Source: Escherichia coli
Lineage (GTDB): Bacteria > Pseudomonadota > Gammaproteobacteria > Enterobacterales > Enterobacteriaceae
DNA: 328 nt
Direction: 5' to 3' (one strand)
NCBI RefSeq assembly: GCF_003334385.1
Contig: NZ_QOWN01000203.1
In this document: one piece after another, positions 1 to 328 of the stretch
Position numbering within the stretch: the first letter of the stretch is position 1
Layout: every line of letters starts with the position of its first letter
Program-made: the position numbers and the translations under genes
Notes under the pieces: model-generated
What the model was told of the DNA's origin: nothing
Database searches by the model: none
Seen by the model: the letters and a program-made list of their open reading frames with translations, nothing else

Positions 1-230
1 TGCACACCGGATTCCATCCCGCCATCGCGGGAACGCCGGGAAAGGACCACCACATTGCGGCGCAGTTTTCCCCTGCGCACCGGTGCCCGTGACACCACTT
101 CTTCTTTCAGTTCATTCGCCCCCGCGCGGGTTGCCTCACGCAGTACCCGGTTGTTTTCTGCACCACTCAGAAGCTGCAAATTACGGCTTATTTCTTCAAG
201 TCCCGAAAAATCCAGCAGGGTTTCGATCAT
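1..230 (-). CDS. Phage tail-component / head-tail joining protein, HK97 gp10 family (N-terminal 76 codons; 3' end lies beyond position 1)
   Basis: Minus-strand ORF starts at ATG (complement of 228-230) and stays open to the window edge. Translation: MIETLLDFSGLEEISRNLQLLSGAENNRVLREATRAGANELKEEVVSRAPVRRGKLRRNVVVLSRRSRDGGMESGV. The N-terminal 'gLeEl..L..L' stretch followed by 'RAPVRRGKLRRNV' matches my recollection of the HK97 gp10 family pattern (roughly 'aP.dTG.LrrSi'; Pfam PF04883 / TIGR01725). A GGGAGGGG Shine-Dalgarno sits 6 nt upstream of the ATG. Family assignment is from memory, not a search. Confidence 0.72.
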   Translation of the reverse strand, partial: MIETLLDFSGLEEISRNLQLLSGAENNRVLREATRAGANELKEEVVSRAPVRRGKLRRNVVVLSRRSRDGGMESGV

Positions 231-328
231 TTTTCCCCTCCCAGCCGACAGAGAATTTCCAGGCGCCCGCCGGTCGCATCCGGCACGGGCACCCCGACAA
301 CATTCAGGATACAGTCACGCCAGGGACC
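227..328 (-). CDS. C-terminal 33 codons plus stop of an upstream phage morphogenesis protein, possibly a head-tail adaptor / head closure protein (5' end lies beyond position 328)
   Basis: Minus-strand frame is open from the window edge (328) to TGA (complement of 227-229). Translation: GPWRDCILNVVGVPVPDATGGRLEILCRLGGEK*. The stop overlaps the downstream ATG (ATGA). The product name is inferred only from synteny, since head-tail adaptor genes commonly precede gp10-like genes in HK97-type clusters. I do not recognise the C-terminal sequence itself. Confidence 0.55.
   Translation of the reverse strand, partial: GPWRDCILNVVGVPVPDATGGRLEILCRLGGEK
235..242 (-). promoter_or_regulatory. Shine-Dalgarno ribosome-binding site for the gp10-like gene
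   Basis: Minus-strand sequence GGGAGGGG (complement of 235-242) lies 6 nt (after the GGAGG core) upstream of the ATG at 230-228, within the last codons of the upstream gene. Confidence 0.6.

Follow-up and report, generated by a model that had tools for sequence, protein, structure and literature searches.

A low-GC stretch at the head-closure/gp10 junction of an Escherichia coli lambdoid prophage as a probable by-product of coding sequence

Genes and signals at the junction

The stretch of DNA analysed here, which we call the window (328 nucleotides, positions w1–w328), belongs to an E. coli lambdoid prophage. A prophage in E. coli 2013C-3033 matches it with 100% identity, and many Stx-converting phages with 93–94%; about 2900 copies of the junction occur across 1244 E. 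coli genomes. The prophage genes are arranged in the order terminase, capsid, portal, connector, head-closure, HK97-gp10 family, gp17 tail completion and major tail, and the window contains the junction where the head-closure gene meets gp10. The two genes are encoded on the window's minus strand, and the codons quoted in a previous, sequence-only reading of this DNA (ATG ATC GAA ...) are those of the reverse complement. Positions beyond the window refer to the 16.3-kb prophage segment, L001. The junction comprises the following features:

w227–328, minus strand: 3' end of the phage head-closure gene (Hc1 / SPP1 gp16-type), last 33 codons and the stop TGA at 229–227; translation …GGRLEILCRLGGEK, then stop
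w1–230, minus strand: 5' part of the HK97-gp10-family neck/morphogenesis gene, codons 1–76, start ATG at 230–228; translation MIETLLDFSGLEEISRNLQ…
w227–230, minus strand: ATGA stop/start overlap of 4 nt between the two genes, read directly from the sequence
w235–242, minus strand: GC-rich Shine-Dalgarno sequence GGGAGGGG, with GGAGG at 241–237, 6 nt before the ATG and within the end of the upstream gene

The upstream gene is labelled 'phage head closure protein' in NZ_CP027323.1. The score of its product against TIGR01563 (SPP1 gp16 type) is above the cutoff, but marginal (22 bits, cutoff 20.6), and the assignment is backed by a match to phrog_25 'head closure Hc1' (E = 8e-31) and by the gene order. 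The reading frame that starts at the ATG at w230–228 reads MIETLLDFSGLEEISRNLQLLSGAENNRVLREATRAGANELKEEV…, and its product scores 80 bits against TIGR01725 (cutoff 30.8), covering profile positions 1–120 of 120, which bears out the previous assignment of the dip to the start of a gp10-like gene. This protein also matches phrog_5 'tail completion or Neck1' (PHROG 5; E = 4.7e-35), and has 73% amino-acid identity with its HK97 homologue.

An ATGA overlap with an embedded Shine-Dalgarno sequence is the classic arrangement of translationally coupled genes. Here the GGGAGGGG motif (w242–235) is located 4–6 nt 5' of the gp10 ATG. In order to compare the junction with its relatives we used a set of 91 homologous loci, 11 from annotated phages or E. 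coli genomes and 80 from IMG/VR, in which the (A/G)TGA overlap between the head-closure and gp10 genes is present in 88, with GGGAG/GGGG-type motifs at the site equivalent to the Shine-Dalgarno. The gp10 start codon is GTG rather than ATG in 14 of these 88 loci. The next junction downstream, between gp10 and gp17, also has a 4-nt overlap (L001 8542–8545).

The family phrog_23409 (264 positions) matches both proteins (genes at L001 7752–8542), with head-closure residues 1–98 aligning to positions 1–98 and residues 1–148 of the gp10-like protein to positions 117–264, which indicates that some phage records carry the two genes as one fused open reading frame. No such fused frame was found among the 91 loci, and in the few records concerned the fusion probably stems from an indel or a sequencing artefact. 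In the window the gp10 frame stays open for 28 codons 5' of its ATG. Outside the window, the portal gene (L001 6387–6965) is annotated as a frameshifted pseudogene in the prophage, and it contains internal repeats of about 160 nt, which can be aligned both with one another and with shifted positions in Stx2a_WGPS6.

Extent of the GC dip and its relation to the gp10 protein

The 60 nt at w181–240, corresponding to −10 to +50 relative to the gp10 start, had been reported to be about 43% GC, against about 59% for the whole window, and we obtained the same values (43.3% and 59.1%), with the window outside this interval at 62.7%. The interval is slightly off-centre with respect to the dip: the lowest 60-nt window (w175–234) has 38.3% GC, a minimum reached in 58 of 5000 mononucleotide shuffles of the window. 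The whole dip is described by the following feature:

w142–240, minus strand: full low-GC trough (all 60-nt windows with at most 43.3% GC), −10 to +89 of the gp10 start; L001 8089–8187

The dip is real and non-random at the scale of the window, and is not unusual at the scale of the locus. In the prophage segment, which has a mean of 57.4% GC, 3.3% of the 60-nt windows are equally low or lower, and these form 18 separate troughs as deep as this one, about one per 900 bp. By chance, 2.8 of the 18 would be expected to have one of the 17 gene starts within 75 nt, and seven do (binomial P = 0.015), a 2.5-fold enrichment.

The AT-rich region had been thought to include the Shine-Dalgarno sequence, which does not hold, since GGGAGGGG is itself GC-rich and only touches the edge of the interval (w242–235). 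The low GC is therefore located in gp10 codons 1–27, and not in the ribosome-binding site. These codons specify MIETLLDFSGLEEISRNLQLLSGAENN, a conserved segment rich in Asp, Phe, Ser, Leu, Ile, Glu and Asn, and their GC content at the three codon positions (GC1/GC2/GC3) is 0.556/0.296/0.444, compared with 0.686/0.479/0.636 for the remaining gene. From the protein sequence and the codon usage of the locus, a GC content of 0.502 is expected for codons 1–27 and of 0.601 for the remaining gene, and the observed value for codons 1–27 (0.432) is 2.2 SD under this expectation. At third positions, GC3 is 0.33 in codons 7–27, against 0.646 for the locus, and 0.42 in codons 2–27, against 0.64 for the remaining gene. 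When the interval w181–240 was randomly recoded with synonymous codons (n = 400), its GC content was 47.5 ± 3.3%, and 16% of the recodings had no more GC than the native 43.3%. Of the 14 points by which the interval lies under the locus mean, about 10 are set by the amino-acid sequence and the fixed upstream bases, and the other 4 or so by codon choice, the latter within noise. Synonymous choice contributes to the dip in the window allele, and that choice may have been under selection.

The 91 loci yield 75 distinct junction sequences, with 41–99% protein identity, which are related, so that the counts given for them are not of independent events. The possibility that homologues have no such dip can be discarded, as the equivalent 60 nt are under the locus mean in 73 of the 75 (mean −7.7 points, range −15.7 to +0.8). 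On comparing codons 2–27 with the remaining gene, GC at codon positions 1 and 2 is lower in all 75 junctions, by a mean of 8.6 points, whereas GC3 is lower in only 51, by a mean of 4.5 points. The dip thus tracks the conserved N-terminal segment (…LDFSGL.DI..DL..LS.AENN), and not a conserved codon bias. Taken with the recodings, which reach a mean of 47.5% GC with the protein unchanged, the split by codon position makes the dip mainly a consequence of the amino-acid sequence, and speaks against selection for an unstructured initiation region as its cause.

The invariant GATTTTTC (Asp-Phe-Ser) was considered as a possible nucleotide-level element, such as a slippery site, and was rejected. Although GAT is favoured in 69 of 70 homologues and TTT in 66 of 70, other gp10 codons are equally fixed (GAA25 in 67/70, CGT31 in 63/70 and GAT32 in 56/58). 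No extra synonymous-site conservation was observed in the dip, compared with elsewhere in the gp10 gene.

A seven-base A/T patch in a rare allele

The window differs from Stx2a_WGPS6 at 21 of its 328 positions, and 7 of these 21 differences fall within 20 nt:

w182–201, minus strand: patch of 7 substitutions in 20 nt, gp10 nt +30 to +49, codons 10–17; defined by alignment

All seven patch bases are A or T in the window and G or C in the common Stx-phage allele (GGA CTT GAA GAA ATA AGC CGT AAT and GGG CTG GAG GAC ATC AGC CGC GAT, respectively), and they amount to five synonymous changes and two conservative replacements, D13E and D17N. Reverting them raises the GC content of the interval from 43.3% to 55.0%. 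The common allele, with a nearly identical protein, has 55% GC in the equivalent 60 nt, and consequently the depth of the dip in the window is specific to its allele. In this nearest allele there is also no drop in GC3 (0.615 vs 0.645). The patch allele is rare: of 1249 E. coli records, no more than 23 carry it (at least 95% identity over w150–240).

The outgroups HK97, Fraca and Klebsiella phages have G/C or Asp states at most of the patch sites, and the state found in the window therefore looks derived. In E. coli EC2 (L011) the patch is followed, from about gp10 nt +78 on, by the sequence of the common Stx-phage allele, which points to a recombination breakpoint within the gene's first 80 nt. 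Another locus, from IMG/VR (L012), carries the patch with D17 and is a single base apart from the window (N17D); together, these two alleles show that the patch segregates as a block. A lineage of lower GC content (L031, L074 and L083, about 50% GC) has CTT GAA GAG ATA at patch codons and is the closest to a donor, differing at neighbouring sites, with no exact donor tract found among the 91 loci. Divergence from Stx2a_WGPS6 is patchy across 10 kb, ranging from 0 to 18 differences per 100 nt, which makes exchange among related prophages the likeliest origin of the patch. Most likely, then, it arrived by recombination or gene conversion between such prophages, judging from the alignments; given a length of only about 20 nt and no matching donor, a run of point mutations is also conceivable.

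It is very unlikely, in our view, that the patch adaptively tunes the synthesis of gp10 in a rare lineage of prophages. If this were the case, the stoichiometry of neck proteins made from a translationally coupled operon could shift through the patch, and the patch would be a natural example in which gene conversion has spread a short synonymous tract that tunes expression.

Predicted folding, competing explanations and known systems

The dip had also been taken to reflect a less structured initiation region, a view that is supported for the overall fold but not for the ribosome-binding site. The minimum free energy predicted for −10 to +50 is −11.2 kcal/mol, at the 87th percentile of the locus, i.e. 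weaker than the median, and that for the 60 nt from −30 to +30 is −12.8 kcal/mol (79th percentile). Across the locus this energy correlates with GC content (r = −0.69) and the gp10 junction falls on the regression line, with a residual of −0.1 kcal/mol, so the lower GC accounts in full for the weaker fold. The ribosome-binding site is not predicted to be unusually open: the energy for opening −15 to +5 is 9.2 kcal/mol in the −60 to +60 context, compared with 10.3 ± 3.7 for random positions, and in the −60 to +90 context it is 11.7, above 93% of the synonymous recodings, with 9.7 for the common allele. Neither was a specially stable occluding structure predicted around the start codon, as the comparison with dinucleotide shuffles gave z = 0.08 for −40 to +40 and z = −1.22 for the 160-nt context. 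A structure that could occlude the Shine-Dalgarno sequence, in which GGGAGG partly pairs with CCCU of codons 4–5, was rejected because it is no better than in the shuffles.

The patch weakens the predicted stability of −20 to +60 by about 8 kcal/mol, from −27.1 to −18.9, and this predicted weakening could have an effect on expression. The 80-nt fold of the window allele is weaker than that of its sister allele and than 86.5% of the synonymous recodings (13.5% are as weak). Among the 75 junctions the opening energy does not differ from that of controls (8.3 vs 9.2, P = 0.15), and in their 80-nt ensemble energy the junctions are slightly weaker than the controls (−18.9 vs −21.0, P = 0.001, for sequences that are not independent), a modelled difference that fits some family-wide selection for weak structure.

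These predictions bear on the possibility that low GC was selected at the nucleotide level, to give an unstructured initiation region for efficient ribosome loading on gp10, which we consider unlikely. A/T-rich, weakly folded 5' coding ends are a genome-wide trend, well documented for bacteria and phages (Gu et al. 2010, PMC2816680; Bentele et al. 2013, PMC3964316; Zhou & Wilke 2011, PMC3072339), and in this locus GC averages 46% over the initial 15 nt of the 17 coding sequences, against 57%. The lower GC3 of codons 2–27 and the weaker 80-nt fold, both relative to recodings and sister allele and across the family, point in the same direction. However, the published reduction in GC and folding covers the first 5–10 codons (PMC3964316), whereas the trough reaches codon 27–30 or so, and the GC3 drop is missing in the nearest allele and in 24 of the 75 homologues. 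Furthermore, the energy for opening the ribosome-binding site is average or worse, the weakness of the fold is accounted for by GC content, and both the native GC and the fold energy lie within the spread of the synonymous recodings (16% and 13.5% tails). Coupling through the ATGA overlap would also lessen the need for an intrinsically open site.

Three further explanations carry less weight. A pure compositional fluctuation, with a cause unconnected with the gene start, would be in line with the 11 of the 18 equally deep troughs that lie away from gene starts; it is largely refuted by the recurrence of the dip in 73 of 75 homologous junctions, and since the dip also tracks a conserved protein segment and troughs are enriched near starts, we regard it as highly improbable. 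A 'ramp' of rare codons, with GGA, CTT, ATA, TTG and CTT in codons 10–20 slowing early elongation and aiding ribosome spacing or folding, is hardly plausible. Each of these five codons accounts for 4–15% of the usage among its synonyms in the locus, but the common allele has GGG, CTG and ATC at three of the positions, codon choice there is free to vary across 70 homologues, and published tests (PMC3964316) tie rare codons at gene starts to reduced folding and not to slow decoding. The probability of a hidden regulatory element, be it a promoter (internal or antisense), a terminator, a small RNA or the binding site of a protein, is next to negligible. The one candidate is a terminator-like hairpin on the plus strand, antisense to the genes (AAGCTGCAAATTACGGCTT followed by ATTTCTTCAA, w171–199, with the stem at w171–189), but its stem is weak (3 G-C of 6 pairs), its T tract is poor, and the three terminator-like sites in the region are near the shuffle expectation of 1.2 ± 1.1. 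The promoter/terminator scan gave no promoter-like site in the interval, a search of Rfam at E ≤ 1 over L001 7400–9000 gave no match in it, and synonymous sites are not more conserved in the dip than elsewhere in the gene.

The sole Rfam hit in that search is an isrK-like match 600 nt downstream, in the intergenic region between gp17 and the major tail gene (L001 8833–8936), outside the window. It scores 18 bits, where the gathering score is 50 (E = 0.4), and overlaps terminator-like hairpins at L001 8873–8889 and 8916–8930; this sub-threshold match probably reflects the terminator stem-loops only. Repeats in the window are limited to short two-copy matches and one perfect 10-nt inverted repeat (GGTGCCCGTG at w82–91 and CACGGGCACC at w284–293), whose arms are 192 nt apart, one in each gene, and which is likely due to chance in GC-rich coding sequence.

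The reading that we favour, with a probability of roughly three in four, is that the dip is a coding by-product at a tightly packed, translationally coupled junction in the late operon of a lambdoid prophage. The codons for Asp, Phe, Ser, Leu, Ile, Glu and Asn are A/T-rich at positions 1 and 2, and the conserved N-terminal segment alone would take GC down by about 10 points, in every homologue. The patch, a cluster of G/C-to-A/T changes mostly at third positions, would add 4–12 points, depending on the baseline. A general tendency towards A/T-rich, weakly folded first codons may add to the dip in the first 5–10 codons, although it is not needed and leaves no distinct trace here. To initiate gp10, ribosomes are expected to depend on the strong upstream GGAGG and on the ATGA overlap with the upstream stop, where, if the layout is a guide to coupling, a terminating ribosome would unwind the region and could reinitiate. 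The GC dip itself is ordinary and without a hidden element. It matters little, beyond illustrating that low GC at a gene start does not automatically amount to selection for an open ribosome-binding site, and that a codon-position split, a synonymous-recoding test and a comparison of homologous junctions provide a quick triage for similar dips.

As regards known systems, the locus resembles the lambdoid/Stx prophage mosaics that arise from homologous recombination, in its patchy divergence and in the break found inside this region in EC2, and differs from them in that the patch is only about 20 nt long and has no donor among the 91 loci. As in the 5'-end trend described above, the junction has reduced GC at a start codon within phage DNA that is fairly GC-rich (57%), and the window also has early A/T-ending and rare codons and a local predicted fold weaker than average. 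In contrast to that trend, which covers the first 5–10 codons, the trough reaches about codon 27–30 and involves mostly positions 1 and 2, its synonymous part is limited to a rare allele, and the predicted accessibility of the ribosome-binding site is not improved. The junction therefore resembles the 5'-end trend in position only, and gives no clear sign of nucleotide-level selection.

Further parallels lie in the organization of phage late operons, in which overlapping genes are coupled. The 4-nt ATGA with its embedded Shine-Dalgarno, found as an (A/G)TGA overlap in 88 of 91 loci, suggests that the same holds here, and such coupling would account for the initiation of gp10, but not for the low GC. 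The HK97 junction (NC_002167.1, position 5880) shares the gene order, the overlap GAAAAATGAT and the N-terminal motif MIETSLDFSGL…AENN, and its equivalent 60 nt have 41.7% GC, compared with 53.8% for the HK97 locus. Whereas the window allele owes its depth to the seven-base patch, HK97, whose background GC is lower, arrives at a similar dip with a GC3 of 0.54.
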